Position numbers and translations under genes: made by a program | The notes under the pieces: model-generated | Database searches by the model: none | Told to the model about the DNA's origin: nothing | What the model saw: only the letters and a program-made list of their open reading frames with translations | Source of the DNA: Candidatus Dormiibacterota bacterium | GTDB lineage: Bacteria; Chloroflexota; Dormibacteria; Aeolococcales; Bog-877 | DNA length: 64,000 bases | Direction: 5' to 3' | Assembly (NCBI GenBank): GCA_049591595.1 | Contig: JBAWFE010000027.1 | Location: 149,812 to 213,811 of the forward strand | In this document: one piece after another, positions 10,834-53,000 of the stretch | Layout: every line of letters begins with the position of its first letter | How positions within the stretch are numbered: the first letter of the stretch is position 1

Positions 10834-11210
10834 CCGAGCGATCCTTGTCAGTGTCGGGAGAGTGCTTCAGGGTCGCTCCATGCCCAAGGCCGCGGCGCGG
10901 TGACCCGGCGCCGAAAGGCGGTCCTGCGCTGACCGGATCTCCGTGCCCATGGTATTGACCGAGATGTGGGTGGCCCCCACTTCGCGCCAGTTGTCAGCCA
11001 GGGGCGCAACCGTGGAGACGCCCGCCGAGCGCCAGCTGATGCGCTTGAATGCCGAGCCGCGAGGGATCCCGGCCCCATTCCCGAGCGCCTCAGTCAGTGA
11101 CAGTGCCTCTCGCACGAGCAGCTTACGTGTTGACCGCCCCGCCGTAACACGCGGCCCAGCGCTGCCAGTGGGGATTCTGGTCCGGTGAACGGTTGGCCCT
11201 TCGAATCAGA

Positions 11211-13271: not shown

Positions 13272-13273
13272 GG

Positions 13274-13948
13274 CTATGAGCCCTCCGGCGGAAAAGTGAT
13301 CGCGGTATATGAGCTATCGGTCTGCGAGTAGTAGGCAAGTCCGGGCGACGTGAAATGGAACCAGACGGCGACGCCGATTGCCTCCTCATCGTCCACGGAC
13401 TGGGAGCGCAGGTTGAGTGCGTACTCTCCAGTACCGCCTGTAAAACATCCTGATGCGCCAGACGCGCTGGCTCCATCGGTGGCATCGAGGTTCCAGCTTC
13501 CCGTCGTCGAGCAGAAGGTGTAATCGTCCTGCTCGGTGGCTCCGGCCGGGTTACCTTGCGCCACGGAGCAAGTGGAAAGGGCTGGGAGGACTCCGCCTGA
13601 CGGCATACACGAGGCCGGTTGATAAATCTCGATCAGGGTTGGGGTGGAGTTGGAGAGCTGGTTCAGTGACGGCAGCATCGCCGAGAGGATCTCTTCGTCT
13701 ACGGCACAGGGGTCATCAGCGGTCGTCTGGCACGTGGAGTCCTCCTCACATGTCAGCGAACCACTCTGCTCTCCGCAGGTGCTTCCGATTTCGGCGGCGA
13801 TCCTCGCGCCGTAGCCGGTCGCCTGGGCGACACTGTCGTTGTTGGCGATCAAAGCCGCCCCTGTCCACGCTCCGAGGAACACCAGCAGGATCACCGGAAA
13901 AATGATCACGAGCTCGATCAGGGCTTGGCCGCGTTCGCTTCGGCGCAT
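13274..13948 (-). CDS. TadE-like pseudopilin
   Basis: MRRSERGQALIELVIIFPVILLVFLGAWTGA is a TadE N-terminal motif. Its ATG shares a base with the upstream tadE stop (TGATG on the minus strand). Confidence 0.6.
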   Translation of the reverse strand: MRRSERGQALIELVIIFPVILLVFLGAWTGAALIANNDSVAQATGYGARIAAEIGSTCGEQSGSLTCEEDSTCQTTADDPCAVDEEILSAMLPSLNQLSNSTPTLIEIYQPASCMPSGGVLPALSTCSVAQGNPAGATEQDDYTFCSTTGSWNLDATDGASASGASGCFTGGTGEYALNLRSQSVDDEEAIGVAVWFHFTSPGLAYYSQTDSSYTAITFPPEGS

Positions 13949-14580
13949 CACAGGCTTTGCGGCTCCAAGCGGCAGACCACCGATGCGGTGAGGTGGAATG
14001 TCGCCCAACCTCCGATCGTGCTGAAGGTGTAGTCGACCTTGACTAGCGCGAAGTCAGGCGTGCCCACCAGGCCCGAGCTCTGGCTGGTGATGCGATCCTC
14101 GGCTGGCCAACTGCAAGTGGTGTTGACCGTACCGGTGCAGCTCCAGCCTGTCGGGTCGGTGCCGGTGACCCCAGTATGGGTGTAGATCATTTCACAGGGA
14201 ACGCCGCTACCGCAGCCGTCAGTGTCCAGGACGAGGTTCTCGCCCGAGGAACCACTCACCTGGTCTTCCCGTTGTACGGAGATCGAAGTGACTGTGGAGA
14301 GGACGGTATTGTTCAGGCCGGCTGGCTCCATCAGCTGAATGGCCAGTTGGTCCGCGTCCAAGGTGTTCGTCCCCTGGACCTCGGTGCCGTTGCCCTCAGC
14401 AGCGATCTCGGCTGCGCCGACATCGACGGCGTGTTGGAGGGCGTTCCTGGAGAACAGGAGAAGTCCGCCATTTATGATCGAAAAGAAGATAAAAAAGAAG
14501 ATCGGGGCCGCCAGGGCGAATTCGATCGTCGACTGAGCCCGCTGACCCCGTCCCGGACGGAGCAGCCGGTAGAAGAACAT
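13948..14580 (-). CDS. TadE-like pseudopilin
   Basis: RGQRAQSTIEFALAAPIFFFIFFSIINGGLLLF is a TadE motif. The ORF is open to 14607. Confidence 0.6.
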   Translation of the reverse strand: MFFYRLLRPGRGQRAQSTIEFALAAPIFFFIFFSIINGGLLLFSRNALQHAVDVGAAEIAAEGNGTEVQGTNTLDADQLAIQLMEPAGLNNTVLSTVTSISVQREDQVSGSSGENLVLDTDGCGSGVPCEMIYTHTGVTGTDPTGWSCTGTVNTTCSWPAEDRITSQSSGLVGTPDFALVKVDYTFSTIGGWATFHLTASVVCRLEPQSL

Positions 14581-14936
14581 CACACTGCTCCCAGCCCACT
14601 GGACCAATGTCGTTTGGTCGTAGCGAGTGGCAGGTAGGAAGTCGGCCGGGCCAGAGGGAACACGGTGCCGCTGCCCAGGCTCAAGGATGGCTCCTCACGT
14701 CCGCCTGATCGCTGCGCAGCGACGGCCGCGCAAGCAGGCTAGCGCCCGCCCCTGAGGGGCAAACGCAGCCGAGCCAAAATGGATGCTTCACATCCCCCAG
14801 TTTCATGATGTGGCTGGAGCGTATCCGGGCCTGGTCACACCGCGTCCGTACAAACTGTGACGCTTCGGTAACAGCTTCTTTCACTTGTCCAGTTCAGGCC
14901 AGCTGCAGGCTAGCACGCAAAGGGGGCACCGAGTTC

Positions 14937-37973: not shown

Positions 37974-39566
37974 TCAGGGCAGGGCCCTGGCCTGGCTGGC
38001 ACAGGCGGCGATACCTCTGGACCGCCAGCTGGCCGCCGTAGGGTTGGCGGGCAGGTGCAGGGTGCTGAGCAGGCTGGTCCGCTCAAAACCCTCGACCCGG
38101 CGGTCCCGGTAGACGAGGGTCCACTCCTTCGATTGCTGAAGCGCATCCGGGAAGGCGGTGCCCCGTTCGAACACGACCACCTGGGAGGGGCTGGAGTCGA
38201 GGTTTTTGAGCCAGTTGGGGCTCAAGTCGATAATCGAGGCGTAGCGCTCCAGCAGCTGGCTGCCCATCAGCGCTGCGTCACCGAAGATGAACACCTTGTC
38301 CTTCGGCACTGAGTAAGCGAGGAAGCCACCGTCACCGTACTGGTTGAAGATGCGCAGCTGCCCCGGTGCGGAATCAAGCCACCTCGCGGCGCAGACGGGA
38401 AAGGAGTTGATGTAGGTCGAGGAGTTCAGCGCCGGGCTACCGCCGGTGTCCACCTGGACAGTCAGGAGGGCCAGTAGGAAGACGAACTCCAGCAGCTCGA
38501 CCAAAATCACCACCGGCGGCTGGCGCAGCCTCAGGTGGGGACGCCACCGTCGGGCCAGGTCAAGTCGGGCGCGGTCAGCCAGATTGATCCAGACAGGGGC
38601 GCCGGCCGCCAAGAGGAAGACACTGTTGCGTACCGACTGGAGGGTGAGGAAGAGGCTCAGGGCCAGCACTAGCCCGTCGCGCAGCGAGATCGATCGATAC
38701 CGGACCAGAAGCACCCCCAGGCTGAGGATGAAGATCAAAAGGGGGAGCAGCACCGCCGCGTGAAAGTCCGGGCTCTGCCACTCCTGGATCAGCGCCTGCT
38801 GGGCGGTGTTGAACTGTGTCTCGAAGGGGTAGGCGATGATCGCCGGTCCGTTGGGGTTGAGCAGGCATACAGCAACCGAGCAGCCGGTCGCCCATCCGAG
38901 TTGCACGATCCGATGTCGGTCTAGGGCGGACCGGCGCCGGGCCAGGACCAGGCCGCCCTCCACCACCATGATGGCCAGCAGGAAGATCAGCCCAAGGATG
39001 AATCCGGCATGCAGGTTGGACCAGATCAGGAAGATCGGGGGTAGCAGCCAGGCGGCGAACCCACCCCGCCGCAGTTGACGCTCCGCCAAGAGGAGCACCA
39101 ACGCCGTGAGCATGTATGAATCCATCTGGGAGCGCGGTCCCAGGATCGGATAGGCGGCCAGAGCTGCCAGCAGGATGCCCACCGCTAGGGTCGCGCCGTG
39201 GGCGGGTCCCAGCTCTCGGGATCGCAGCCAGATGAGCAGGAACAGGGCCAGGGTAATCAGCTCGTAGACGATCACCACACCTAAGCGGCCGGAGGCGGCG
39301 GCGACTGCCGCCATCCAGGACTCACTCAGCCACTCCTGCATCACCCAGTGGCGACCCACCGCCATGAAGGCGTACGGGTTGACGTGGATGAGAGCGTTGG
39401 TGGCCAGCAGGGTCTTGCCGTTCCGCAGGTGCCACCAGAAGTCCGGGTCCGAGACCTCGGGTCGTGCCAGGAGCATGGCCGCCAGGAGCCCACTCAGGGC
39501 GAGGAACCGAGGCAAGGTCAACCACTGGCGCCGCGTGGTCGCCCGCCTCAGCTGATCCGGTGGCAC
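37974..39566 (-). CDS. polytopic membrane protein (paralog of 34858-36411)
   Basis: DFWWHLRNGKTL / IHVNPYAF motifs, >10 TM, and a C-terminal domain PVCAARWL...YGDGGFLA...WTLVYRD matching the paralog. Confidence 0.5.
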   Translation of the reverse strand: MPPDQLRRATTRRQWLTLPRFLALSGLLAAMLLARPEVSDPDFWWHLRNGKTLLATNALIHVNPYAFMAVGRHWVMQEWLSESWMAAVAAASGRLGVVIVYELITLALFLLIWLRSRELGPAHGATLAVGILLAALAAYPILGPRSQMDSYMLTALVLLLAERQLRRGGFAAWLLPPIFLIWSNLHAGFILGLIFLLAIMVVEGGLVLARRRSALDRHRIVQLGWATGCSVAVCLLNPNGPAIIAYPFETQFNTAQQALIQEWQSPDFHAAVLLPLLIFILSLGVLLVRYRSISLRDGLVLALSLFLTLQSVRNSVFLLAAGAPVWINLADRARLDLARRWRPHLRLRQPPVVILVELLEFVFLLALLTVQVDTGGSPALNSSTYINSFPVCAARWLDSAPGQLRIFNQYGDGGFLAYSVPKDKVFIFGDAALMGSQLLERYASIIDLSPNWLKNLDSSPSQVVVFERGTAFPDALQQSKEWTLVYRDRRVEGFERTSLLSTLHLPANPTAASWRSRGIAACASQARALP

Positions 39567-39679
39567 GTCATATCCCGAGCGATCACGGGCGCCAGTGTAG
39601 GTGGGGCCGGCGGCCCCTCACTGTGGCGTCGCCTGACCAGCCCCGGGCATTTCTTTGGGCCACCACGTACCCTTTGGGC

Positions 39680-40741
39680 GTGGCCGCTCGACCCCAGTCG
39701 CCCGTCGCGTCTCCTCTCGGGGAGCTCCAGCTGGTCCTGGAGGAGGAGGTGCTCCGGGTGGAGAACGCCCTCCTCACCATCGACGAGGAGGTCATGCAGC
39801 TGCTCTCCGCCCTGGACCAGGTCGGGGACCGGCTGGAGGACTCCGACATCGTGCGCCGCCATGTCCTGCGTGACCACGCGCGCTTCACTTCCGCCGAGGT
39901 GGAGGCCGCCATCGGTCGCTGCTTCGCTTTGAGATCAGAGATGACCTTGGCTAGGCTGCGCCTCGCCCACTGTCGGAGCTGGGCGAAGGAGTTGCGCTAC
40001 TGGCACTCCCTGATGAAGGCAGCCGCCGAACAGTTGGAGGACCACCGACCTCCCGACGGCACCCTGGAGGAGGGTCTGGCGCGCTATCGAAGCGCGTCGC
40101 GGCAGGTCTTCCAGACCATCGACGAGGAGCGGATGCGGATTGCCCGGGATATGCACGACGGACCCGCTCAGTCGATGTCCAATCTGGTGCTTCGGGCCGA
40201 GATTCTCGAGCGCATGGTCGATCGGGAGCCAGAGCGGGCCAAAGCGGAGGTTCAGAGCTTCAAGGATGCGATGAAGGGGGTGTTGGACGAGACCAGACAG
40301 CTGATCTTCGACCTGCGCCCTATGACCCTTGACGACCTTGGGGTGATTCCGACTCTGCGACGGCTGGTCAACGAGTTCCGGGACGCGGAGGGGATCGAGG
40401 GCCGGCTCTCGGTGATCGGAACTGAACGGCGACTCCCGGCGGCCACCGAGGGAGCTCTCTTCCGGATCGTCAAGGAAGCTCTGGTCAACGTCCGCAAGCA
40501 CGCTCGAGCGCACAGCCTGGATGTACTAATTAATTTGCAGCCGCAGCGGGTGAGCGCGGTCATCAAGGACGATGGGGATGGCTTCGACCTAGCGGCGGTG
40601 GAGGTGCGGCTTGCTCGCGAACCACACTTCGGACTGATCTCGATGCGGGAGCGCGCCGACCTCGAGCAAGGTCAACTGGAAATCCTCTCCCAGGTCGGCC
40701 GAGGCACCGAAGTGCGAGTAACGCTGCCGATCGAACCGTGA
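39680..40741 (+). CDS. cytoplasmic sensor histidine kinase (HisKA_3 + HATPase_c, DegS/NarX-type)
   Basis: H-box RMRIARDMHDGPAQSMSNL, an N-terminal coiled coil, no TM segment, and an ATPase G-box region DDGDGF. Start uncertain (TTG 39674 or GTG 39680). Confidence 0.7.
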   Translation: MAARPQSPVASPLGELQLVLEEEVLRVENALLTIDEEVMQLLSALDQVGDRLEDSDIVRRHVLRDHARFTSAEVEAAIGRCFALRSEMTLARLRLAHCRSWAKELRYWHSLMKAAAEQLEDHRPPDGTLEEGLARYRSASRQVFQTIDEERMRIARDMHDGPAQSMSNLVLRAEILERMVDREPERAKAEVQSFKDAMKGVLDETRQLIFDLRPMTLDDLGVIPTLRRLVNEFRDAEGIEGRLSVIGTERRLPAATEGALFRIVKEALVNVRKHARAHSLDVLINLQPQRVSAVIKDDGDGFDLAAVEVRLAREPHFGLISMRERADLEQGQLEILSQVGRGTEVRVTLPIEP

Positions 40742-40868: not shown

Positions 40869-41072
40869 ATGCTCGGAAGTTGGTACGTACGGCTGCGTGA
40901 CCGGATCGGTCAGGTAGTCTCGCACCGCGACTCGGACGAAGAGGGCCAGGGGATGGTTGAGTACGCGTTGATCCTGGTGCTGATCGCGATCGTTGTCATC
41001 GTTATCCTCACTGTGGTGGGACACCGCGTCAGCGACGTCTTCTCCAACATCAACACTGGTCTCGGCGGCTGA
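40869..41072 (+). CDS. flp: Flp-family type IVc prepilin
   Basis: GQGMVEYALILVLIAIVVIVILTVVG matches the Flp motif G/xxxxEY followed by a hydrophobic helix. AAGGAGG RBS 7 nt upstream. 67 aa. Confidence 0.65.
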   Translation: MLGSWYVRLRDRIGQVVSHRDSDEEGQGMVEYALILVLIAIVVIVILTVVGHRVSDVFSNINTGLGG

Positions 41073-41176: not shown

Positions 41177-42328
41177 GTGACGACCGATTTGAAAGGACGG
41201 GTCAATCAGGTCTGGATCGCCATAGGGCTGATCCTCGCGATCCTCGCGTTCGGCGCGGCTTATTACTTCACTCGCGCCAACACCAATAACACTCGAGTGG
41301 CCCCGGCCACCGGCCAGTTGGTGGTGATCGCGAAGGTCTCGATCCCCAGCGGTACGCTGATCACCGCCGGCATGCTCGAGGAGACCCGGATCAAGGGTCT
41401 GCTACCCCTCGATTCGTACAGCTCGTGTGTGCAACTCGTGCGCACCGCCTGTGCTGCAACTGCCGGTGTGTCGGCATCGCAGTCGACGTCAACCTCCGCC
41501 TCGGACTATTACGCCGTCGTTCCGATCACCCCCAACACGGTGATCACTCAGAACAACGTCTCCGTAAACCGAGCAACCCAGTCACCATCTTTCGGCAACT
41601 TGAATCTGCCGGCTGGTGAAGTTGCCGTGGCTATTCCGATTACCGCCGCGGAGTCGGTCGCCGGCTACCTCCAGGTGGGTGACCGGATTGACATCATCGG
41701 TCTTGACTCGAGCGGAAACACCGACTTCACCTTCGAGGACCTTCCGGTGATCAGCATCGGATCTCCGTCGACGGCGACCGGGGCAGCGAGCAGCTCGTCA
41801 GGCGGCGGACTGATCGTTCTTCAGCTGACGCGCAGCGAGGCCCTTGGCGTGACCGAGATGGTCAACGACGGTTCCATATACACGATCGCGCTGCGGTCCA
41901 GTGCGGACTACGGCCACGGCTACATTCCGATCACTTCGACGCCGGCTGACGAGTACACCCAGGCCTGCGTGGCGGGGAGCTCCGTCAACCCGATCATCCA
42001 AGAGGACATGCAGACGGCTCAGCTGTCGGTCACGGCGGCGTCCAAGACCTACACCACCGCCCACAAGCAATACAACAAGGACAACACCGCGCTGCAGAGC
42101 ATGTCGGGCACCGGCTCGGCCGAGCAGGCCGCCAAGGCCCAAGTGCTCACGGATGCGGCCACCTTGGCCCAGGATCAGTTCGCCCTGATCGAGGCCCAGA
42201 ATGAGCTGGCTTCCGACCAAGCGGTCCTGTACTGCGGATCCACCAATGCCGCCAGCTCGTCATCGTCGGCGGGCAACAATTCCGGTAGCTCGCAGATGCT
42301 GCAGAACCTCTTTGGCTTCAAACCCTGA
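41177..42328 (+). CDS. cpaB: CpaB/RcpC-family Flp pilus assembly protein with C-terminal extension
   Basis: N-terminal TM (WIAIGLILAILAFGAAYYF) then a SAF-like region QLVVIAKVSIPSGTLITAGML. ~150 aa extra C-terminal coiled coil and Ser-rich tail. Confidence 0.6.
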   Translation: MTTDLKGRVNQVWIAIGLILAILAFGAAYYFTRANTNNTRVAPATGQLVVIAKVSIPSGTLITAGMLEETRIKGLLPLDSYSSCVQLVRTACAATAGVSASQSTSTSASDYYAVVPITPNTVITQNNVSVNRATQSPSFGNLNLPAGEVAVAIPITAAESVAGYLQVGDRIDIIGLDSSGNTDFTFEDLPVISIGSPSTATGAASSSSGGGLIVLQLTRSEALGVTEMVNDGSIYTIALRSSADYGHGYIPITSTPADEYTQACVAGSSVNPIIQEDMQTAQLSVTAASKTYTTAHKQYNKDNTALQSMSGTGSAEQAAKAQVLTDAATLAQDQFALIEAQNELASDQAVLYCGSTNAASSSSSAGNNSGSSQMLQNLFGFKP

Positions 42329-42367: not shown

Positions 42368-43627
42368 GTGAGCACCACGGTGGCGGATAAGACCGTCATC
42401 CGCGTGGTGGTGGTCGACGACATCGCCAGCACCCGAGAGAACCTCAAGAAGTTGCTCTCCTTCGAGGAGGACATTGAGGTTGTCGGGACCGCTGGCGATG
42501 GCCGGACCGGCATCGACGTGACCCGGCAACTCTCGCCGCACGTGGTGCTGATGGACGTCAACATGCCGGGAATGGACGGGATCGCCGCGACTGAGACCCT
42601 GGCAGTGGAATCGCCCAACTCCCCGGTCGTGATCATGTCCGTCCAGGGGGAGCGGGACTACCTGCGCCGCGCGATGCAGTCGGGTGCTCGGGAGTTCCTC
42701 ATCAAGCCCTTCACCGGCGACGAGCTGGTGTCCAGCATCCGCCGGGTCTACGAGATGGAGGAGAAGAAGGGATCCTACCTGCCGCGCCAGCCTCCCCCCC
42801 AGGAGCAGGTAGGCGACCTGCCCCCAACCGGTTGCCAGGTGTGTCTGGTTCTCAGCGGGAAGGGGGGCTGCGGCAAGACCTTCTTGGCCATCAACCTCGC
42901 CGCCGCCCTGCGGACGGAGACGGGCGGTCGGGTCTGCCTGGTCGATCTCGATCTCCAGTTCGGCGACATCGGCGTGATGCTCAATTTGGACCACGCCAAG
43001 ACGATCACCGAACTGGTGGACAGCGAGAGTGCGTTGGACTGGGAGTTCGTCGACGACATCCTGGCCGATGGTCCAGAGGGGATTCGGGTCCTGCTGGGTC
43101 CCTTCAGCCCGGAGTTCGGGGACCTAGTCCGGGCGGAGCATGTGCGCGCCATCGTCGACGTTCTGCGACGAGAGTTTGACTATGTCGTCGTGGACAGTGG
43201 GAGCCAACTATCGGAGGCTACCCTCGAAGCAACCGAGTTGGCCGATCACGTGATCGTGGTCGGTGAGCTCACTATTCCCGCGATCAAGGACACTCGCCTG
43301 ATGCTGAAGATGCTGGAGTCGCTCAAAGTGGACCGCTCGCGGGTCATGGTCGCGGTCAACGCCCATGACGCGCATGCCGTCTATGACGCAGCCAGCATCG
43401 AGCGCAATCTGCGGTTCCCGGTCAAGCTGCAGATACCCTCGGAGCCTCGCCTGGTGGGCGGATCGATCCATCGGGCGATCCCGCTGGTCGTCTCCCACCC
43501 GGATTCCGACATCTCCTTGCTCTTCCGCAACCTGGCCCGAAGCCTGGCACCGGAAGGGGCAGCTCAGCCTGAACTCAAGGCCGAGGCCAAGGCGCCCACC
43601 GCCCGTCGCTTCGGGCTTCGGCGCTAG
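42368..43627 (+). CDS. tadZ: TadZ/CpaE: response-regulator receiver fused to a MinD/ParA-like ATPase
   Basis: REC domain with an intact phospho-acceptor region (VVVDD...VVLMDVNMPGMDG...FLIKPF), then a deviant Walker A LSGKGGCGKTFLAINLAAAL. Confidence 0.75.
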   Translation: MSTTVADKTVIRVVVVDDIASTRENLKKLLSFEEDIEVVGTAGDGRTGIDVTRQLSPHVVLMDVNMPGMDGIAATETLAVESPNSPVVIMSVQGERDYLRRAMQSGAREFLIKPFTGDELVSSIRRVYEMEEKKGSYLPRQPPPQEQVGDLPPTGCQVCLVLSGKGGCGKTFLAINLAAALRTETGGRVCLVDLDLQFGDIGVMLNLDHAKTITELVDSESALDWEFVDDILADGPEGIRVLLGPFSPEFGDLVRAEHVRAIVDVLRREFDYVVVDSGSQLSEATLEATELADHVIVVGELTIPAIKDTRLMLKMLESLKVDRSRVMVAVNAHDAHAVYDAASIERNLRFPVKLQIPSEPRLVGGSIHRAIPLVVSHPDSDISLLFRNLARSLAPEGAAQPELKAEAKAPTARRFGLRR

Positions 43628-43653: not shown

Positions 43654-45225
43654 ATGTCACTGCTGGAGAGAGTTCGGACCAAGGACGGATCGGAGCCGGA
43701 GCCCGGCCCCGAAGTGTCCGCGCCAGTCGAGGAGAAGCCCAAGGCCAGGACGCCTGAGCCGGCAGCTGCGGCCCCCCCCGCTCCACCTCCCGCTGCTCCT
43801 TCTCGCCTAGCGGCCGCCCTGGCTGCCGCCAAGCCTCCGGCCGTAGCCGCCCCGGCCAAGTCGCCAGGATGGCGGGAGCGGTCCCAGACCAATCGGGAGA
43901 ACCCCTCGGCGGTGGTCGAGCCCCGGGCGGCTCATCACCCGCAGTACATGTCGATCAAGGCGCGGGTGACCCAGGCCCTACTGGAGGAGTACACCGACGT
44001 CTCCCAGGCGCCCCGCGAGCGGTTGGTCGCCAAGATCGGGGAGCTCTGCAATTCGGTCCTGGAAGAGCTGAGCATTTCGATCACCCGCACCGATCGGCAG
44101 CGGATGGTGGAGCAGCTGATCAGCGACGTGCTCGGCCTGGGCCCGCTGGAGATGATTCTCAAGGACCCGGAGATCAGCGAAATCATGATCAACGGCCCGG
44201 AGGATGTCTACGTCGAGCGCCAGGGAAGGATCTATCGCTACCCGGCCAAGTTCGACAACACGGACCACCTGATGCAGATCATCGACCGGATCGTCAGCTC
44301 GATCGGACGCCGAGTCGATGAGAGCTCGCCGATGGTGGACGCCAGACTCAAAGACGGCTCCCGGGTCAACGTGATCATCCCGCCGCTGGCGCTCCAGGGA
44401 CCGACTTTGACCATCCGGCGCTTCTCCAAGGACCCCTACACGGTGGAGGATCTGATCAACTTCGGAACTCTCACCGCTGAGATGGCGACGTTCATCCGGG
44501 CCTGCGTGCGGGCCAGGTTCAACGTGCTGATCTCAGGAGGCACCGGGTCCGGTAAGACGACCACTCTGAACGTGCTCTCCGGCTGGATCCCCGACGACGA
44601 GCGGATCATCACAATTGAGGACGCAGCCGAGTTGCAGCTGCGCCAAGACCACGTTGTGACCCTGGAGTCGCGCCCCTCCAACATCGAGGGCCGAGGACGG
44701 GTCAGCATTCGTGATCTGGTCATCAACAGCCTGCGGATGCGGCCGGATCGGATCGTCGTCGGTGAGTGTCGGGGAGGTGAGGCCCTGGATATGCTCCAGG
44801 CGATGAACACAGGCCACGACGGCTCACTTACCACTGTTCACGCCAACACTCCAGCCGACGCTTTGACCCGACTGGAGACCATGACGTTGATGGCCGGCAC
44901 CGACCTCCCGTCGCGGGCCATCCGCGAGCAGATCGCGTCGGCTATCCACCTGGTGGTTCAGCAAGCTCGCCTTCGCGATGGCACCCGGCGCATCATCGCC
45001 ATCTCCGAAGTCCGGGGCTTCGACGGGGAACGGGTCGAGATCGCGGACATCTTCCAGTACCGCCAGAAGGGCCTCGATGACCAGGGGATGGTGATCGGCC
45101 AGTTCGAAGCGGTCCAGGTTCCCAAGCGCCTCGATGATCTGGCCGCCGCTGGCGAGGGGTTGGAGGAATCGCTGTTTGCTCCTCCTTCCAAGGGCAAAAT
45201 AGCAGCAGGAGAGACCGCCGCATGA
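43654..45225 (+). CDS. tadA: CpaF/TadA secretion ATPase (VirB11/PilB superfamily) with Pro/Ala-rich N-terminal extension
   Basis: Walker [24 protein letters not shown], Asp/His boxes [17 protein letters not shown]. ~130-aa low-complexity N-terminus. Confidence 0.9.
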   Translation: MSLLERVRTKDGSEPEPGPEVSAPVEEKPKARTPEPAAAAPPAPPPAAPSRLAAALAAAKPPAVAAPAKSPGWRERSQTNRENPSAVVEPRAAHHPQYMSIKARVTQALLEEYTDVSQAPRERLVAKIGELCNSVLEELSISITRTDRQRMVEQLISDVLGLGPLEMILKDPEISEIMINGPEDVYVERQGRIYRYPAKFDNTDHLMQIIDRIVSSIGRRVDESSPMVDARLKDGSRVNVIIPPLALQGPTLTIRRFSKDPYTVEDLINFGTLTAEMATFIRACVRARFNVLISGGTGSGKTTTLNVLSGWIPDDERIITIEDAAELQLRQDHVVTLESRPSNIEGRGRVSIRDLVINSLRMRPDRIVVGECRGGEALDMLQAMNTGHDGSLTTVHANTPADALTRLETMTLMAGTDLPSRAIREQIASAIHLVVQQARLRDGTRRIIAISEVRGFDGERVEIADIFQYRQKGLDDQGMVIGQFEAVQVPKRLDDLAAAGEGLEESLFAPPSKGKIAAGETAA

Positions 45226-46253
45226 ACGCTCTAGTACTGGTCCTGGACGGGGTCGGTGCCTTGGCCTTGGGAGCCGCGGTCGCCTACCTGCTCGCCTCCT
45301 GGCGCTCGAAGTCGGGAAGTGCCGACATGGATGAGCGGGTGCGCCGCTTCGCCGAAGCCGGCGCCGGACTGGCGATCTCCGTCCCCGGTGATGAGGACTT
45401 TGGCGAATCGGCCGGCAGCCTGCAGGATCGAGCCAAGAAGCTGCTGGCGCGGCTGCGCCGCCAGGTTGAAGGAGGCAGTAAGGCGGCGGGCGTAGCCCAG
45501 CGACCTAGGTCGGTGCAAGTGGCGGAGGCGTTGGCGCGGGCTGATGTCAAGCTGCGACCGACAGAGTGGTATCTGATTCGAATCGGGGCGGTGGTGCTGC
45601 TGGCGCTGATCGGTCTCGCCCTCTACCGCAGCCTCATCTTCGCGCTCATCCTCGGAGTGATCGGTGTCTTCGTTCCTCCGTTGGTGCTGCGCTTTCGAGC
45701 CCGACGCCGCCTCGGCCGCTTCAATGACCAGCTCGGGGACACCCTGATCCTCCTCAGCAACGCGCTCAAGGCCGGTTACAGCTTTCCCCAGGCGATGGCC
45801 AGCATCGCCCGCTCGGCGCCACCGCCGACCTCGGAGGAGTTCGCCCGGGCAACCCGGGAGGTGCAGCTGGGGGTGACCACCGACGCGGCGCTCACCCACA
45901 TGGTCCATCGGATCCAGTCCGACGACCTCGACCTGGTAGTTACCGCCGTGCAGATTCAGCGCGTCGTGGGCGGCAATCTGGCCGAGATCTTCGACAACAT
46001 CGCCTTCACCATCCGGGAGCGTATCCGGATCAAGGGTGAGATCAAGACCCTGACCGCCCAGGCCCGGGCCTCGAGCTTCATCATCACCGGATTGCCGATC
46101 GGCTTGGGACTGATCCTGGAGGCGATCAACCCCAACTACATCGCCCCCCTGCTCTCCTTCAAGGGCCCTGGTCCGTACATCCTGATTGGATGCCTGATCT
46201 CCATTGCCTTCGCCTTCTACGTGATGCAGCGCATCGCCAACATCGAGGTCTGA
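45222..46253 (+). CDS. tadB: TadB (T2SS-F domain inner-membrane platform protein)
   Basis: T2SSF-like domain. 4-nt overlap with tadA. Confidence 0.8.
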   Translation: MNALVLVLDGVGALALGAAVAYLLASWRSKSGSADMDERVRRFAEAGAGLAISVPGDEDFGESAGSLQDRAKKLLARLRRQVEGGSKAAGVAQRPRSVQVAEALARADVKLRPTEWYLIRIGAVVLLALIGLALYRSLIFALILGVIGVFVPPLVLRFRARRRLGRFNDQLGDTLILLSNALKAGYSFPQAMASIARSAPPPTSEEFARATREVQLGVTTDAALTHMVHRIQSDDLDLVVTAVQIQRVVGGNLAEIFDNIAFTIRERIRIKGEIKTLTAQARASSFIITGLPIGLGLILEAINPNYIAPLLSFKGPGPYILIGCLISIAFAFYVMQRIANIEV

Positions 46254-46256
46254 GCG

Positions 46257-47174
46257 ATGTCTTATGAAGCGCTGATCGTCGGTTTGATCGCCGCCGCCGC
46301 GGTCTTCCTGGTCTTTGCCGGGCTGATCAAGCGCCAACCCCAGGTGAACCTCCTGGACGCGCGGCTCGCCGTGTATGACGAGCCAACAGGTCCCAGGACG
46401 CTCGATGAGATCGAGATGAGCCAGCCCTTCACGGAGCGCTTCCTGCGCCCCTTCTTCGACCGCATCGGTCGGCGGGTGGCGGCTCTTCAGCCGCGGGACC
46501 GCGCCCAGAAACTCCAGATTCTCATCGACCTGGCCGGCCGGCCGATGGGGATGAACGCGGGTAGCTTCGTGGCCGCCCAGATCGTGCTCGCAGTGCTGGG
46601 GGCCGTCGTGGGTCTCGGCCTGGCGGTCCTGCTTTCCTTGCCTTGGTTCCTCGGCTTGGTCTTCGGCGCCGTGCTCGGTTACATCGGCCCGCAGTACCAG
46701 CTGAAGCGGATCGTGAGCGCAAAGCAGAAGGAGATCTCGCTGGCGCTACCCAACGCCCTCGACCTCCTCTGCATCAGCGTGGAGGCCGGTCTGGGATTCG
46801 ACGCCGCCTTGGCTCGGGTGATCGAGAAATTTGATAACGCCCTCTCACGGGAATTCGCCTTCGTGCTCAACGAAATCCGGCTGGGGCGACCCCGCCACGA
46901 GGCGCTCGAGGATCTCGGCAAGCGCTCAGGGGTTCAGGAGCTGGCGTCCTTCATCCAGGCGCTGGTGCAGTCCGATCAACTTGGGGTGGGCATCGCCCGC
47001 GTTTTGCGCATCCAGTCCGACGAGATGCGCCGCCGCCGGCGTCAGAAGGCGGAGGCCAAGGCTCAGCAGGCGAGCCTGAAGATGCTCTTCCCGATGGTCG
47101 GCTGCATCTTCCCGGTGCTGTTCGTGATCCTGCTGGGTCCGCCGGCTGTGGCGTTGATCTTCCATGTCACCTAA
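46257..47174 (+). CDS. tadC: TadC (T2SS-F domain inner-membrane platform protein)
   Basis: Second T2SSF-like protein, 3 nt after tadB. Confidence 0.75.
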   Translation: MSYEALIVGLIAAAAVFLVFAGLIKRQPQVNLLDARLAVYDEPTGPRTLDEIEMSQPFTERFLRPFFDRIGRRVAALQPRDRAQKLQILIDLAGRPMGMNAGSFVAAQIVLAVLGAVVGLGLAVLLSLPWFLGLVFGAVLGYIGPQYQLKRIVSAKQKEISLALPNALDLLCISVEAGLGFDAALARVIEKFDNALSREFAFVLNEIRLGRPRHEALEDLGKRSGVQELASFIQALVQSDQLGVGIARVLRIQSDEMRRRRRQKAEAKAQQASLKMLFPMVGCIFPVLFVILLGPPAVALIFHVT

Positions 47175-47637
47175 TTCGGCTCCGGCGAACACCGCCGGTC
47201 CCCGTTCGCGAACGGTGGTGGTGCGCGCCGCCGACGGCGCGGTGGTGGCCCGTCGGGTGACCGTGGCGGATCGCTTCGGACCCCGCCTGATGGGGCTGAT
47301 GGGTCGCGCCCAGCTCGACCCTGACGAGGGACTGTGGCTGGTGCCGTGCAACAGTGTTCACATGTTCTTCATGCGGACCCCGTTGGACATTGCCTATCTC
47401 GACCGCCAGCTGCGGGTGGTGCGCTGCGTGCCGGAGATGCGGGAATGGCAGGTCAAGCTGCTGCCGGTGCGGCATGCGCATAGCGCCCTCGAGCTGGCCC
47501 CGGGCACCCTGCGTCGCACGGGAGTCAGCGAGGGCGATGAGCTAAAGATAGGGTCGGAGCCCGCGAGTGTCGCGGAGTTAGCCCCGGAGATGTCCGGCAC
47601 CGGTTCAGCGGTGTTCAGTTCCAGTGTCAGGGAGTAG
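47164..47637 (+). CDS. DUF192 (COG1430) domain protein
   Basis: GLMGRAQLDPDEGLWLVPCNSVHMFFMRTPLDIAYLDRQLRVV ... ALELAPG follows the DUF192 consensus. It overlaps tadC by 11 nt. Confidence 0.55.
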   Translation: MSPNSAPANTAGPRSRTVVVRAADGAVVARRVTVADRFGPRLMGLMGRAQLDPDEGLWLVPCNSVHMFFMRTPLDIAYLDRQLRVVRCVPEMREWQVKLLPVRHAHSALELAPGTLRRTGVSEGDELKIGSEPASVAELAPEMSGTGSAVFSSSVRE

Positions 47638-47640
47638 TCA

Positions 47641-48834
47641 ATGAGTCCGGTCCTTACCGAAGAAGAGAGGCTGCAAGGCATGGAGGGATACCTCCAGGCC
47701 CTCGGTCCGCTGCGGGTTCTAGTGGAAGATGACAGTCTCACCGAGATCATGGTCGTCGGTCCGGACATGGTGTACGTGGAGGCCCAGGGCAAGATCGTGC
47801 TCACCGACGTCCGCTTCCGCGACAACGAGCATCTCCTCAAGGTGATCGACCTGATCGTCGCCGCGGTCGGACGCCGCGTTGACGTTCGTCAGCCACTCTG
47901 TGACGCACGTTTGCTGGACGGCTCCCGCGTCAACGCGGTGGTGCCCCCGGTGTCTATCGACGGACCAATTCTGACCATCCGTAAGTTCGCCAAAGAGCGC
48001 CTGCGGATCACCGACCTGATCCATTTCGGCACCATCGATGAGGCGGGTGCATCGTTCATGCAGGCCTGCGTGCTGGCCCGCGCGAACATCCTCATCTCGG
48101 GAGGCACCGGCGCCGGCAAGACGACGCTGCTGAACATCTGCTCAGGCTTCATTCCTCCCGACGAGCGCATCGTCACCATCGAGGACGCCGCAGAGCTGCA
48201 GATGCACCAGGAGCATGTCTGTCGGCTGGAGTCGCGTCCCCCGGACGTGCGTGGCGAGGGCCGGATCAACATCCGCGACCTGGTCATCAACGCCCTCCGG
48301 ATGCGACCTGATCGAATTGTGGTCGGTGAGGTTCGAGGCGGTGAGGCTCTGGACATGCTTCAGGCCATGAACACGGGCCATGACGGCTCCATGACCACCG
48401 TCCACGCCAACACCCCTCGAGACAGTCTCTCCCGTCTGGAGACCCAGGTATTGATGGGTGGCGTGGAGCTGCCCTCGAAGGCGATTCGTCAGCAGATCTC
48501 CAGCGCCATCGACATCATCGTGCAGCTCAACCGCCTCCGCGACGGCAGCCGTCGGATCACCGCGATCAGCGAGGTGGTCGGGATGGAGGGCGACACGATC
48601 ACGATGCAGGACATCTTCGTGATGAAGGCCGAGGGCATGGATCAGCAGGGCAACCTGAAGAATGAGTTCGAGCTGACCGGGGTCAGGCCGCAGATCCTCG
48701 ACCGTCTCTTCGACATGGGCTTGGCGGTTCCACCCGAGATCTCAAGGCTCTTCCCGGACCGGCGCACCGACCAGGTGGCGGCGATCAAGTTGCCGACACC
48801 ACCCCCCGGTCCATTGCAGAGGCGTCTTGGCTGA
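47641..48834 (+). CDS. second CpaF/TadA-like secretion ATPase paralog (N-terminally shorter, 397 aa)
   Basis: [40 protein letters not shown]. ~80% nt identity to the tadA core over ~100 nt (44758-44850 vs 48319-48420). Confidence 0.85.
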
Positions 48835-49666
48835 TGTCCGGACTCGGCGGGGGGCGGTAACCCGCCGACTCGCAAAGGGGTTCGGTGGCGTCTTTTTGGG
48901 GGCAATCCTGACTTTGACGCTGCCCGGCCTCCTGGCGGCCCCCGTGTTTGCCCAAACACCAGGCAGTGGAACTGGGTACAACGAAGAGCTAGTCAGTCTC
49001 ACCAACAACGACCGCACCAGTAACGGATTGGCGGCCCTGGCGGAGAACGGCGCCCTCGACGACATCGGAGAGAGTGGGGATTACGGTGGCTGCTCTCGAC
49101 CTATCTACGGACGGGCGGACGACATGATCACCAATGACTACTTCTCCCACGTCATTCCGGGATGCAGCGCCGACGGGGGCTACGTCTGGCCGATCATGTC
49201 GGCGTACGGAGTCGATTTCAGTTCAGCAGGCGAGAATGTCGGCTGGAACAGCGGCTACGCGGACCCGGCGGCCGGGGTGAACACCCAGTTCATGGACTCC
49301 GCTCCCCACCGGGCAAACATCCTGGGGGCATTTGACGAGCTTGGAGTCGGGTCCTGGTACACCTCAAGCTCCTGGAACTACCCGGGCAGCGGTGGCGGAC
49401 CCTGGACCGGCGTCTACATGTTCGCCGAGGAGTTCGCCCAGGTCGGCGGGTACACTCCGCCTCCGTCGTCGGGTGGCGGAGGTGGTGGCGGTGGTGGCGG
49501 TACGGCACCTAGCCCACCGGCAACGCCGGCTCCCACTCCGGTCCCGACCCCGACTCCCACCCCGAAGCCCCCTCCGCCCGGAGTGGGGTCAAAGTCGCCG
49601 AAGCTGGCCCAGGGATTGCTATCCAGCACAATTGACCAGGTGATCAGCAGCTACCTAGATGAGTGA
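48827..49666 (+). CDS. secreted CAP/SCP/PR-1-domain protein with Gly10 + Pro/Thr-rich linker
   Basis: Signal peptide (...LLAAPVFAQT), a CAP core (NNDRTSNGLAAL ... GENVGWN ... HRANIL) and GGGGGGGGGGTAPSPPATPAPTPVPTPTPTPKPPPPG. Confidence 0.6.
   Translation: MADVRTRRGAVTRRLAKGFGGVFLGAILTLTLPGLLAAPVFAQTPGSGTGYNEELVSLTNNDRTSNGLAALAENGALDDIGESGDYGGCSRPIYGRADDMITNDYFSHVIPGCSADGGYVWPIMSAYGVDFSSAGENVGWNSGYADPAAGVNTQFMDSAPHRANILGAFDELGVGSWYTSSSWNYPGSGGGPWTGVYMFAEEFAQVGGYTPPPSSGGGGGGGGGGTAPSPPATPAPTPVPTPTPTPKPPPPGVGSKSPKLAQGLLSSTIDQVISSYLDE
49468..49582 (+). repeat. low-complexity Gly10 / (Pro-Thr)n coding repeat
   Basis: ggtggcggaggtggtggcggtggtggcggt... followed by ccgac/ccgactcc-type PT repeats. 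Confidence 0.7.
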
Positions 49667-50474
49667 GGCGCCCGCCCCAGTCGAAAAGGGCGAGGTGGCA
49701 GGCCAGGCAGTGTTGGAAGCGACGGGACTTCACAAGAGCTTCTCCATCAGCAAGACCCCTCACGAAGTGGTTCGCCAGGTCTCACTGACGGTCAACCCCG
49801 GGGAGTTCTTCGCGGTGATGGGCCCCAGTGGATGCGGCAAGTCGACGCTGCTGAACATGCTCGGTGGGCTGGAAGCTCCCGACCAGGGCAAGGTGGTGGT
49901 AAGGGGGACCGATCTCTACTCCTTGAGCGAAGGCGAAAGGGCGGCGTTCCGACGTCGGCAGATCGGGTTCATCTTCCAGTTCTTCAACCTGCTCCCCAGC
50001 CTGACGGCCGCCGAGAACGTGATGCTGCCCTACCGCTTGGAGCGCAATCGCGCGTGGCCGCTGCGAGGGCTGGGACGAGACCGAGACGCGCGGGCCCGGG
50101 CCCACGATCTGATGGCGATGCTGGGGCTGAAGGGGCTGCAGGGACACCGACCTGACGAGATTTCTGGTGGTGAGCAGCAGCGGGTCGCGGTCGCCCGGGC
50201 CCTAGTCTCCGACCCGGCCATCCTGCTGGCGGACGAGCCCACCGGTACCTTGGACTACCACGCCGGTCGAGGCGTGCTGGAGCTGTTGCTGCGGCTGAGT
50301 CGGCAGGAGGGTCGGACCATCGTCCTGGTGACCCACGACGTCCGGACCGCCGCCTACGCCGAACGGGTGGCGATCATGCTCGACGGGGAGTTCAAGGAGG
50401 TGGTGCGGTTGGGTCACCGGACAGTTCACGACACCGCCCCACTGCTGGAAAGGCTCGGGACTCATGGTCTCTGA
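49659..50474 (+). CDS. ABC transporter ATP-binding protein (MacB/LolD/FtsE-like)
   Basis: [37 protein letters not shown]. 8-nt overlap with the CAP gene (ATGAGTGA). Confidence 0.9.
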   Translation: MSEAPAPVEKGEVAGQAVLEATGLHKSFSISKTPHEVVRQVSLTVNPGEFFAVMGPSGCGKSTLLNMLGGLEAPDQGKVVVRGTDLYSLSEGERAAFRRRQIGFIFQFFNLLPSLTAAENVMLPYRLERNRAWPLRGLGRDRDARARAHDLMAMLGLKGLQGHRPDEISGGEQQRVAVARALVSDPAILLADEPTGTLDYHAGRGVLELLLRLSRQEGRTIVLVTHDVRTAAYAERVAIMLDGEFKEVVRLGHRTVHDTAPLLERLGTHGL

Positions 50475-50489
50475 GGTCGGCTCCGGGAG

Positions 50490-53000
50490 TTGATCCCCCT
50501 CCTTTGGCGCCGAGCGGCGCTGGCCCGCCTGGCCCTCGGAGTGGCCGCGCTGGCGCTGGGTGGCGGGGCGGTCCTGGGTACCCAGCTGACCTCGGGTGCG
50601 CTCCATCAGCAGGCGACCGCGGCGGTACAGCAACGAGCGGGTGCCGCCGAGTACGACATTCAACCGTTTGCCCGTCAGGGCTTCACGACTGCCCAGCTCA
50701 AGGCCATAGCCAAGCTCAAGGTGGTCACCTCGGCATCCCCATTGGAGGAGAAGGCCGATCTGGCCCGCCTCCCTTCCAAGGCCTTCCGGGAGGTGGTCCT
50801 GGTGGCGACCAGCGCCAGGGGGGTGGCGCTGCGCCCGCTGCCGGTAATTAAAGGGAGCAGCCCTCGGTCGGAGGATGAGGTGGCGGTGAGCCAGAACCTG
50901 GCCCCGGGCATCTCGCTCACCTCGGGTGCGGCTACCCCGGGCAAGGTCAGGATCGGCCAGCAGCTGCAGCTGGTCGAGTCCAAGGGGGTCAAGAAGTTCA
51001 CGGTGGTGGGAGTTGTCGCCAACTCCAGCTTGGGAGCGCCGTTCACCGCTGACGCCGTCTACATCAACCAGGCGACAGCCCAGAAGCTCTTCTCCTCGGG
51101 GCTGCAGGTGACCGAGGTCGCGGTCAGGCTCCGGCCCGGTGCGACCGTGCCCCAGCTGCTCAGCGAGCTCTCCCACTCTGTCCACACCCAGTACACCGTC
51201 AGCAACCCGAGATCAGTTCCGGAGGGAGATCCGGTGGGGGAGTTGCAGCCCATCCTTGACGGCATCACCGCGTTGAGCCTGGTGCTCGCCTTCGCGGTGA
51301 TCGCGGCGACCTTCAGCTCCCTGGTCCTCGACCGCCGCCGCGAGATTGGTTTACTCCGGCTAGCCGGAGCCAGCCGAGGTCTGATCTTCCGCAGCTTCTT
51401 GCGCGAAGCGATCGCCGCCTCGGCGCTGGGCGCCGCGATCGGGGTCGGGGTCGGGTACCTGCTGGCCCTGGTGCTGATCGCGGTCTCCACCCCCTCCGGG
51501 GTGAGCCCAGCGCCTCGAATCCAGGCCGACGTTGGTTGGACGGTAGTCGCCTTCCTGCTGGTACTGCTTCTGGGGGTGCTCGCGGCCGCGTTCCCGGCGG
51601 TCCAGGCAGCCCGGATACCGCCCCTGGTTGCGGTGCGACCGCCCGGCCTTCGACTCGGGCGGGGGTGGGCCTGGCAGCTTCCGCTGTTTGTGCTGGGAGT
51701 GATCGGGGCCGATTTCTTCTTCGAGAATGGAGGAGCGTTGGGAGTGGGCCTGGGCGCCGGTTTCGCCTACCTGGCTGTCTGCGCCGCCCTGGGGTGGATC
51801 GGTCCCCGCCTGGTGCGCATCCTGAGTATGGTCTTGGGCCCGCTGATCGGCACGCCGGTGGCAGCCATCTCCGCCCGCGGACGTACCCGTCCTGCCCGCA
51901 CCTCGCTCGCCCTGGCGGCCCTCTTCGTCAGCGTGGCGACGGCCATCGGCCTGGTGGGGCTCTCCAGTGCCGCCCTCACCGCGGGTCAGGTCTGGGTGAA
52001 CCACCTCTTCGTAGGCCAGTACCTCCTGGTCAGCCCGGTCGTCCAGACCACCAAGGTGGAGCAGCAGGTGCTGACCGCGATCTCGGCCAAAACCAGCAAC
52101 ACCACCGTGGTTGCTTCCGCCCCAGTCCGATTCGTGGCGGGGCGGGTGGGCCACGAGGCGATCTCCCTGGCGGCCACCTCGGCCACGGCCTACGGAATCA
52201 GCGGGGCGCTTCAGTTCATTCATGGCGACCGGGACTCGGCTCTGGCCCATCTCTCCGCCGGTCAGGGGGTGGTGCTGCCTCTTGAGCTCTCCGAGTCTCT
52301 GCACGCCTCGGTCGGCTCCAAAATCAAGGTGATCTCCGCCAGCGGATCCGGGTCGTTCCGGGTGGTCGGCGTGGTCGCCCACAGCCTCCCTGGCCCCTCC
52401 GGAGAGGAGTCGGCGGTGATCGACAGCGCCGCTGCCAAGAAGGACTTTGGCGCCGCCGCCGAGGGCTTCAACCTCATCCAGCTGGAGCTGCGGGGCGGGG
52501 CAGACCTTCAGCATCAGGTGGCCTTGGCCGCCTTCCGATACGGGTTGGAGGAGGAGACCGTCTCTACCGTGCGCCGGGGGGTGGACCTTGGCGTGCAGCA
52601 CGATATAGCGGCTCTCTCGGCGCTGGCCCTGGTGGGAGTGGTGATCGGCATCTTGGCCGCCATCAACACGGTCGTCCTCGGAGCCCGCGAGGGAACTCGA
52701 GACATGGCGCTGCTGCGGGTGGTGGGACTCAGCCGGGCGGAGACCCGTCGGGCGGTGATAGGGGAGGCGCTGGCCACCGCCATCGCCGGCTGTGCGGTCG
52801 GGATCGCTGTCGGGATCGGCCTGATCTCGCCAGAAGTTCACGTGGCGAACTCGGCCGCTCTGCCTCTCAGCTTCGGAGTCCCAGTCCTGGTGATCCTCGC
52901 GGTGGTTCTGGCGGTGGTCGTGGCCATCGTGCTGGCCGCCGTGATTCCGGCTCGCCAGCTCAGCAATCTCGATCCGGTGGCGGCGCTGAGCGTGGAGTGA
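50490..53000 (+). CDS. ABC transporter permease with two FtsX domains (MacB-type, 836 aa)
   Basis: Two repeats of one N-terminal TM, a ~200-aa extracytoplasmic domain, and 3 TM of FtsX type (LRLAGASRGLIFRSF... / LRVVGLSRAETRRAV...). Confidence 0.85.
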   Translation: MIPLLWRRAALARLALGVAALALGGGAVLGTQLTSGALHQQATAAVQQRAGAAEYDIQPFARQGFTTAQLKAIAKLKVVTSASPLEEKADLARLPSKAFREVVLVATSARGVALRPLPVIKGSSPRSEDEVAVSQNLAPGISLTSGAATPGKVRIGQQLQLVESKGVKKFTVVGVVANSSLGAPFTADAVYINQATAQKLFSSGLQVTEVAVRLRPGATVPQLLSELSHSVHTQYTVSNPRSVPEGDPVGELQPILDGITALSLVLAFAVIAATFSSLVLDRRREIGLLRLAGASRGLIFRSFLREAIAASALGAAIGVGVGYLLALVLIAVSTPSGVSPAPRIQADVGWTVVAFLLVLLLGVLAAAFPAVQAARIPPLVAVRPPGLRLGRGWAWQLPLFVLGVIGADFFFENGGALGVGLGAGFAYLAVCAALGWIGPRLVRILSMVLGPLIGTPVAAISARGRTRPARTSLALAALFVSVATAIGLVGLSSAALTAGQVWVNHLFVGQYLLVSPVVQTTKVEQQVLTAISAKTSNTTVVASAPVRFVAGRVGHEAISLAATSATAYGISGALQFIHGDRDSALAHLSAGQGVVLPLELSESLHASVGSKIKVISASGSGSFRVVGVVAHSLPGPSGEESAVIDSAAAKKDFGAAAEGFNLIQLELRGGADLQHQVALAAFRYGLEEETVSTVRRGVDLGVQHDIAALSALALVGVVIGILAAINTVVLGAREGTRDMALLRVVGLSRAETRRAVIGEALATAIAGCAVGIAVGIGLISPEVHVANSAALPLSFGVPVLVILAVVLAVVVAIVLAAVIPARQLSNLDPVAALSVE

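Follow-up and report, generated by a model that had tools for sequence, protein, structure and literature searches.

A predicted cytoplasmic DUF192 protein linked to Tad/Flp pilus genes is a candidate accessory of prepilin maturation

The protein considered here is a 157-residue member of the DUF192 family encoded, with an ATG start, at positions 47164-47637 of a 64-kb stretch of Candidatus Dormiibacterota DNA (contig JBAWFE010000027.1 of assembly GCA_049591595.1, positions 149,812 to 213,811), which is referred to as the window; its gene lies within a Tad pilus locus on the forward strand, between tadC and a second cpaF ATPase gene. Linkage of DUF192 to Tad and other type IV filament genes is a conserved feature of several phyla, where it takes many gene orders, and the different arrangements are independent of each other. 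Judged from sequence, there is roughly an even chance that the protein serves Tad/Flp (type IVc) and certain other type IV filament machines as a cytoplasmic accessory, with a role in prepilin maturation or hand-over; the best-supported partner appears to be the prepilin peptidase and not specifically the second ATPase.

Identity, fold and predicted location of the DUF192 protein

DUF192 (Pfam PF02643, also known as COG1430 and UPF0127) was assigned to this gene in an original prediction made from the DNA letters, and a Pfam profile search upholds the assignment for the full domain, with E 1.5e-19 and 70.3 bits against a gathering cut-off of 27 over profile positions 2-96 of 96. The protein is a relative, not a member, of the archaeal-type DUF192 equivalog NF002996 of NCBIfam (PRK03760), to which it scores 52.4 bits, below the cut-off of 146. 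The open reading frame (ORF) is a conserved, selected and real gene, since its third codon positions have a GC content (GC3) of 0.80 and its dN/dS against orthologues is 0.19-0.39. No match was returned by PADLOC or PHROGs, and therefore no defence or phage link is indicated. A profile search of 1.84 billion representatives gave 25,554 relatives at E<=1e-3, 278 of them at E<=1e-30. The names carried by close homologues agree with an origin in Candidatus Dormibacterota.

The folded core is predicted to span residues 17-130 approximately, with 15 disordered residues at the N-terminus and about 27 at the C-terminus (residues 131-157, predicted to be non-membrane); the predicted fold agrees with that of solved family members. 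This fold is restricted to the DUF192 family, and structural neighbours beyond it are uninformative on role. The R-x2-G-L-M motif, the Asp of the central strand/loop and the Glu of the ..LE.. strand are all present in the window protein, and R41, G44, L45, D75/D80 and E110 are invariant or nearly so in alignments A1-A3; the subfamily to which it belongs is marked by the motif P-C/x-N/S-S-[VI]-H-M-F-F-M-R. A catalytic Cys or His, as the P-C-N-S-V-H form of this motif might suggest, was rejected, as C62, H66 and H106 are each substituted in some members.

An N-terminal hydrophobic segment is missing from 239 of 244 subfamily proteins, the copy from the diderm Moraxella among them, and the subfamily is predicted to be cytoplasmic because it has no signal peptide; a periplasmic location was rejected, as the subfamily has neither signal peptide nor transmembrane segment. 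It differs in this from the solved DUF192 proteins 3PJY (Sinorhizobium meliloti R01717) and 3M7A (Novosphingobium Saro_0823), which carry signal peptides (one was deposited as a "hypothetical signal peptide protein") and have no known pilus link. To our knowledge no function has been assigned to 3PJY, to 3M7A or to DUF192 proteins of the window type.

Linkage to type IV filament genes

Linkage was counted as a type IV filament marker within 10 kb of a DUF192 gene, and as adjacent when the marker lay within 300 nucleotides (nt). When 185,579 species genomes were scanned, the subfamily motif turned up at no fewer than 592 loci, 80 of which were kept; a second, independent scan of metagenomes, seeded with a Bacillota DUF192 member, supplied a further 80. 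A marker is present at 46/80 of the genomic loci (adjacent in 33/80) and at 48/80 of the metagenomic loci (adjacent in 32/80); of the metagenomic contigs with at least 4 kb of flank, 27/35 carry a marker, so that conserved linkage in other genomes, as the original prediction implied, is found in both samples. The genomic sample is dominated by related Dormibacterota loci, and its counts are not independent events; independent support for the linkage comes from the metagenomic sample and from plasmids. When DUF192 copies were clustered at 60% identity, a linked member was found in 31 of 36 informative clusters.

Linked copies occur in Dormibacterota, Chloroflexota, Actinomycetota (including Streptomyces plasmids), Bacillota, Elusimicrobia-like contigs and a Moraxella plasmid. 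DUF192 follows tadC in the window, in other Dormibacterota, in the Chloroflexota loci L029 and L044 and on the Moraxella bovis plasmid (L090); in Paenisporosarcina (L084) it and flp diverge at the head of a complete tad operon, and it is the last gene of a tad-like operon on the Streptomyces linear plasmids (L087, L089 and L091). In L137 it comes directly after a TadZ-CpaF fusion gene, and in the Elusimicrobia-like contigs L083 and L140 directly before a PilB/MshE-type ATPase gene, with PilA and PilD encoded nearby.

Matches to DUF192 were found on 13 Streptomyces plasmids, three of which (those named above) were examined; the operon there encodes CpaF, two T2SSF proteins, a small ORF, two TadE proteins and TadG, followed by a LysM protein of about 1100 residues and then DUF192, and polymorphic-toxin or LamG genes lie near the operon in one of the three. 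The fusion in L137 (7823-9973) is a 716-residue protein joining a TadZ/CpaE-like ParA ATPase to CpaF, in a low-GC locus that also has CpaB and a secretin-sized gene.

Fusion of DUF192 to prepilin peptidases and other membrane enzymes

Among close relatives, DUF192 is fused to a prepilin peptidase of the TadV/CpaA type (PF02643 with PF01478, family A24) in at least 29 clusters (P0222 and P0245-P0272), which derive from four data sources and share 41-75% mutual identity. The DUF192 domain is always N-terminal and the A24 domain C-terminal, with a weakly receiver-like insert in some, and both catalytic Asp residues are invariant in 27 of these fusions. An AlphaFold2 model of the fusion (pLDDT 89, pTM 0.74) has a linker of about 10 residues from DUF192 to the first transmembrane helix, and by helix count the model puts both catalytic Asp residues on the same, cytoplasmic, side. 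In the complete tad operons of L173 and L175 the fusion gene comes directly after tadC, which is the slot held by DUF192 in the window, and a DUF192 gene with a separate A24 gene after it is found in L174 and on an Alkaliphilus plasmid (L088). The window protein shares 39% identity (E 4e-17) with the DUF192 domain of P0245; unlike the DUF192::TadV fusions it is a stand-alone protein, in which a disordered tail of 27 residues replaces the membrane peptidase.

Other fusions are also found. At least 25 clusters carry DUF192 with an extension of about 150 residues that has weak similarity to receiver domains. Rarer fusions join DUF192 to an M48 peptidase in three full-length members and to an ICMT/PEMT-like membrane methyltransferase in two (P0226, at L092 3265-4578, and P0149 are among these fusions); they hint that DUF192 may partner membrane processing enzymes more generally. 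The peptidase of the M48 fusion is lipoprotein-like, and the DUF192 domain there may be extracytoplasmic. One apparent fusion of TadC to DUF192, P0096, was discounted as an artefact of assembly or frameshift: it occurs as a singleton, its TadC end is truncated and its C-terminus is scrambled.

Proposed role in prepilin maturation

DUF192 would work at the cytoplasmic face of the membrane together with a prepilin peptidase encoded outside the window, at the step where the Flp prepilin is cleaved and passed on to platform (TadB/TadC) and motor (CpaF); its most probable action would be to bind the cytoplasmic leader or N-terminus of the prepilin, or to dock or regulate the peptidase at the platform-ATPase complex. 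The active site of prepilin peptidases faces the cytoplasm, where cleavage occurs, and TadV is without the cytoplasmic domain of PilD (review, PMC10191384). That N-terminal cytoplasmic region of PilD (DiS_P_DiS or methylation domain, PF06750) has the same place relative to A24 as DUF192 has in the fusions, a likeness that may indicate a possible mode of action only. A bolder and more tentative form of this proposal is that cytoplasmic DUF192 is a widespread missing component of Tad systems, the counterpart of the cytoplasmic domain absent from TadV, which would hold the prepilin leader or N-terminus and couple cleavage to TadB/C and CpaF, and which would have been reused as a module with M48 and ICMT-like enzymes; if DUF192 held the prepilin while coupled to platform and motor, processing and polymerization would thereby be linked.

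Several observations weigh against a role in prepilin maturation. No A24 gene lies in the 64-kb window, where a hidden Markov model (HMM) built from 28 TadV-like sequences gave no match in any ORF of at least 35 residues at E<=10, although it detects A24 genes at 16 loci elsewhere. Nor does one lie beside DUF192 in the syntenic Dormibacterota loci, and the partner peptidase is therefore assumed to be encoded elsewhere. Across the 160 scanned loci DUF192 lies beside an ATPase gene in 38/160 and beside a platform gene in 30/160, whereas an A24 gene is a less frequent neighbour (12/160, within 300 nt). The subfamily has no invariant Cys or His suggestive of catalysis, the M48 and ICMT-like fusions suggest that the role of DUF192 may exceed pilus biogenesis, and some copies stand apart from pilus genes: about 25 Dormibacterota loci keep a kinase-DUF192 pair with no pilus gene within 10 kb, and pilus genes are likewise missing from the vicinity of the Myxococcales copies and of some Elusimicrobia-like ones.

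Alternative roles

The high count of ATPase neighbours bears on an alternative considered unlikely, which is the nearest form of the part-of-the-machine idea in the original prediction: that DUF192 binds the CpaF/PilB hexamer, here the truncated second CpaF (CpaF2), as an adaptor or regulator, and in one version selects which motor engages the platform or in which direction the pilus moves. The pairing of DUF192 with cpaF2, with its 3-nt spacing in the window, is kept in about 25 syntenic loci; a T2SSE ATPase is the commonest immediate neighbour in the metagenomic sample (11 upstream, 5 downstream); loci L083, L140, L151 and L170 combine DUF192 with a PilB/MshE-type ATPase and have no platform gene within 10 kb; and the position directly 3' of the TadZ-CpaF fusion in L137 also fits such a role. 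ATPase adjacency may, however, simply follow from cpaF-tadB-tadC-X being the customary operon order. Outside Dormibacterota the majority of linked loci encode only one ATPase, so DUF192 is not tied to a second motor, and it is kept where an adjacent ATPase gene is absent (L143, L110 and Dormibacterota lineage B). Among about 270 listed relatives there is no DUF192-ATPase fusion, whereas fusions to the peptidase are frequent.

The loci that keep only kinase and DUF192 bear in turn on a signalling role, which is considered improbable: DUF192 would be an adaptor acting with the HisKA_3 kinase and receiver domains (such as that fused to CpaE), reporting or controlling the state of the pilus machine and not assembling it. 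Kinase and DUF192 bracket the pilus core in the window and are retained without it in the approximately 25 Dormibacterota genomes, at least 25 clusters pair DUF192 with the receiver-like extension, and proteins with the order DUF192, receiver-like domain, A24 exist. Kinases or LuxR-type regulators are found near DUF192 in L174, L175 and the P0219 contig, and a GAF-HD gene lies 3' of the DUF192-PilB pair in L083. The receiver-domain matches of the extensions and inserts (E 1e-4 to 8e-3) are nevertheless under the Pfam threshold, no kinase is present in most linked loci of Bacillota, Streptomyces plasmids and Moraxella, and two-component genes are common beside tad loci anyway.

That DUF192 has a general role unrelated to pili and owes its position to inherited synteny is considered highly improbable: the wider family is large (the 25,554 representatives) and has secreted members (3pjy, 3m7a) for which no tie to pili is known, close relatives without nearby pilus genes occur in Effusibacillus dendaii and Myxococcales, and the order tadC-DUF192-(comF/hpf)-secA in Dormibacterota and Chloroflexota could reflect vertical inheritance, but the linkage reappears on plasmids and in phyla that are unrelated, in seven or more gene orders, and as peptidase fusions, a pattern that descent cannot yield, and the immediate neighbour is a pilus gene in about 40% of loci against about 1% expected by chance (a rough estimate from the genomic share of pilus genes). 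The original prediction had likewise held that the gene is no passenger, and on this point the cross-phylum linkage, the many gene orders and the peptidase fusions agree with it.

Gene junctions and translation

The start of the DUF192 gene overlaps the end of tadC by 11 nt, and the ATG of cpaF2 lies 3 nt after the DUF192 stop; both distances are as originally described, and from them translational coupling on both sides and a stoichiometric role in the machine had been proposed. The overlapping ATG start and a +3/+4/-4 junction to the ATPase gene recur in about 20 orthologous loci. Of the 45 pairs of neighbours on the same strand in the window as a whole, 25 either overlap or are no more than 15 nt apart, and in the array from cpaB to secA the gaps run from -11 to +39 nt, the unrelated ABC, GT87 and secA genes included. 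Tight junctions are the norm in this window and are not diagnostic of stoichiometry; because they also join genes unconnected to pili, their geometry on its own is no argument for it. The stoichiometric role is not supported, and the arrangements found elsewhere also tell against it, as DUF192 may be divergent, at the operon end or peptidase-fused and not beside an ATPase gene, and is kept without pilus genes in sister Dormibacterota and some Elusimicrobia-like contigs.

DUF192 is the sole gene of the Tad locus without an upstream Shine-Dalgarno-like motif, and is probably translated by re-initiation after tadC. A Shine-Dalgarno-like AGGGAG for cpaF2, read from the sequence at 47629-47634 on the forward strand, lies inside the last DUF192 codons; the C-termini of orthologues are conserved as ..VRE or ..SGE because the motif falls in those codons. 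Since DUF192 has no such motif and cpaF2 has its own, the output of DUF192 should not exceed that of TadC and is probably lower; cpaF2 can initiate on its own and need not be coupled to DUF192.

Comparison with known systems

An association of DUF192 with Tad genes has been noted once in passing, in a 2025 paper on Bulleidia extructa, in which a DUF192 gene of 112 residues was placed at the 3' end of tad operons of several Bacillota and was suggested to act in the Tad system, its role there being left open (PMC12786226). That protein is likewise small and consistently beside Tad genes, and its structural matches (3pjy, 3m7a and 6ozd) are those of the window protein; it is encoded by the penultimate gene of a locus with one ATPase in Bacillota, whereas the window locus belongs to another phylum, has DUF192 in another position and encodes two ATPases. 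The same paper reports neither peptidase fusions nor spread across phyla. No function for DUF192 was found in any other paper in the searchable literature, and neither the cross-phylum linkage nor the peptidase fusions appear to have been described there.

The Tad system of Caulobacter shares the core of Flp, CpaB, CpaE, CpaF and TadB/C with the window locus; it has a single bifunctional CpaF, whereas the window encodes two CpaF paralogues, a receiver-CpaE fusion, a kinase and DUF192. No secretin domain turned up among the window locus genes scanned with Pfam, no dedicated search for RcpA, the outer-membrane secretin of diderm systems, having been made. DUF192 is not on published Tad parts lists (PMC10191384), and the window locus is a variant of the known Tad system, distinguished by its second motor and by an accessory that those lists lack. 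A possible analogy is offered by regulators of the PilZ, FimX and MshEN types, in that a small cytoplasmic beta-rich protein is encoded beside a PilB, MshE or CpaF ATPase.

The Tad locus and the rest of the window

The locus encodes, in order, a HisKA_3 kinase, Flp, CpaB, receiver-CpaE/TadZ, CpaF no. 1, TadB, TadC, DUF192, CpaF no. 2, a CAP-like protein, an ABC ATPase, FtsX, a GT87 glycosyltransferase and SecA, all of those given below with coordinates being on the forward strand unless stated. By Pfam the Tad core parts present are two T2SSE proteins, two T2SSF proteins, a ParA-like protein with a receiver domain, and RcpC.

The soluble HisKA_3 histidine kinase (39464-40741; Pfam HisKA_3, E 2.7e-18, with HATPase_c) has an annotated 5' end that overlaps an opposite-strand ORF at 37974-39566, and its true start is probably downstream of 39464. 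The Flp pilin is a 67-residue protein (40869-41072; Pfam Flp_Fap, E 3.7e-10) with a 28-residue leader, ...EEGQG / MVEYALILV, in which the Flp-type processing motif G/xxxxEY is found as ..GQG|MVEYAL... It is followed by cpaB/rcpC (41177-42328; Pfam RcpC, E 1.4e-9, and SAF) and by the gene for a receiver domain fused to a CpaE/TadZ ParA-like ATPase (42368-43627; Response_reg, E 6e-28, and AAA_31/ParA). The platform proteins TadB (45222-46253) and TadC (46257-47174) both match Pfam T2SSF, at E 1.4e-17 and E 1.1e-20 respectively.

CpaF/TadA ATPase no. 1 is a 523-residue protein with a long N-terminal extension (43654-45225; T2SSE, E 6e-67), for which the best NCBIfam match is TadA-type. ATPase no. 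2 has 397 residues (47641-48834; Pfam T2SSE, E 1.4e-58) and is 58% identical to no. 1; about 140 N-terminal residues of no. 1, which comprise a disordered segment and a helical bundle, are missing from it, and its Walker, Asp and His boxes are intact. Both match CpaF structures (8rjf/9e24) at E ~1e-121. The pair is kept in about 25 Dormibacterota loci, and the two paralogues could divide the labour between extension and retraction.

Downstream lies the gene for a secreted protein of 279 residues (48827-49666) that has a Gly/Pro-rich tail and weak similarity to CAP domains (Pfam CAP, E 0.016, under the threshold), and that also matches a PHROG annotated as "sporulation protein" at E 9.5e-10. 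The ABC ATPase (49659-50474) and FtsX-type permease (50490-53000), assigned from Pfam and synteny over 49659-53000, form a MacB-like pair that, after the CAP-like gene, always lies 3' of cpaF2 in syntenic loci, with junctions that overlap or nearly so; on another contig the order FtsX, ABC, a 166-residue protein, DUF192 is found beside a tad operon. Any tie of the ABC ATPase and permease to the pilus is uncertain. A minor-pilin cluster, identified by Pfam, lies on the reverse strand (11211-14607), 27-33 kb away from the main tad locus, and encodes two TadE proteins (13948-14607 and 13274-14008; E 8e-11 and 5e-6) and a TadG-like protein (11211-13271); Tad/Tad_C matches in this cluster fall just under threshold. 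A promoter and terminator scan of 39-55 kb found sites no more frequent than in shuffled sequence and is therefore uninformative on operon boundaries.

Loci without a pilus core

In the Dormibacterota loci without a pilus core, kinase and DUF192 are encoded on the same strand with a 45-nt gap, and the kinase is orthologous to the HisKA_3 kinase of the window. The neighbourhood order there is GT2-kinase-DUF192-DLH-ComF-like-SecA (L022, L038, L047 and L076). That these loci represent a paralogue was rejected: the flanking GT2, secA and downstream genes are syntenic, and the loci are the same neighbourhood minus the pilus core. Records of five loci (L004, L016, L045, L065 and L074) are labelled Micrarchaeaceae archaeon, Nanopelagicaceae, Saccharimonadales and Verrucomicrobiia; all five are syntenic with the Dormibacterota tad locus or its Tad-less counterpart at 60-96% protein identity, and the taxonomy labels of these metagenome-assembled genomes look wrong.

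The ComF-like gene, which encodes a double zinc ribbon and a phosphoribosyltransferase domain (weak Pfam matches), lies just 3' of DUF192 in related loci (L023, 10539-11219; L047, 11598-12236; L029, ~10545-11819), where hpf and/or secA follow; it is not in the window. By analogy with the Flp-pilus-dependent transformation of Micrococcus (PMC4322843), and because of this ComF-like neighbour, the pili of these loci might serve DNA uptake.

Significance

In many bacteria Tad/Flp pili drive adhesion, biofilm formation, DNA uptake and host colonization, and their parts lists are treated as complete. A cytoplasmic DUF192 family comprising thousands of clusters accompanies pilus machines on plasmids and in six phyla or more, with repeated fusion to the peptidase. 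For this window, the over-reading of gene overlaps as evidence of stoichiometry is corrected; for the family, a long-standing domain of unknown function gains a concrete and genetically testable hypothesis, which offers a possible connection between prepilin processing and the assembly motor, a poorly understood step of Tad pilus biogenesis.

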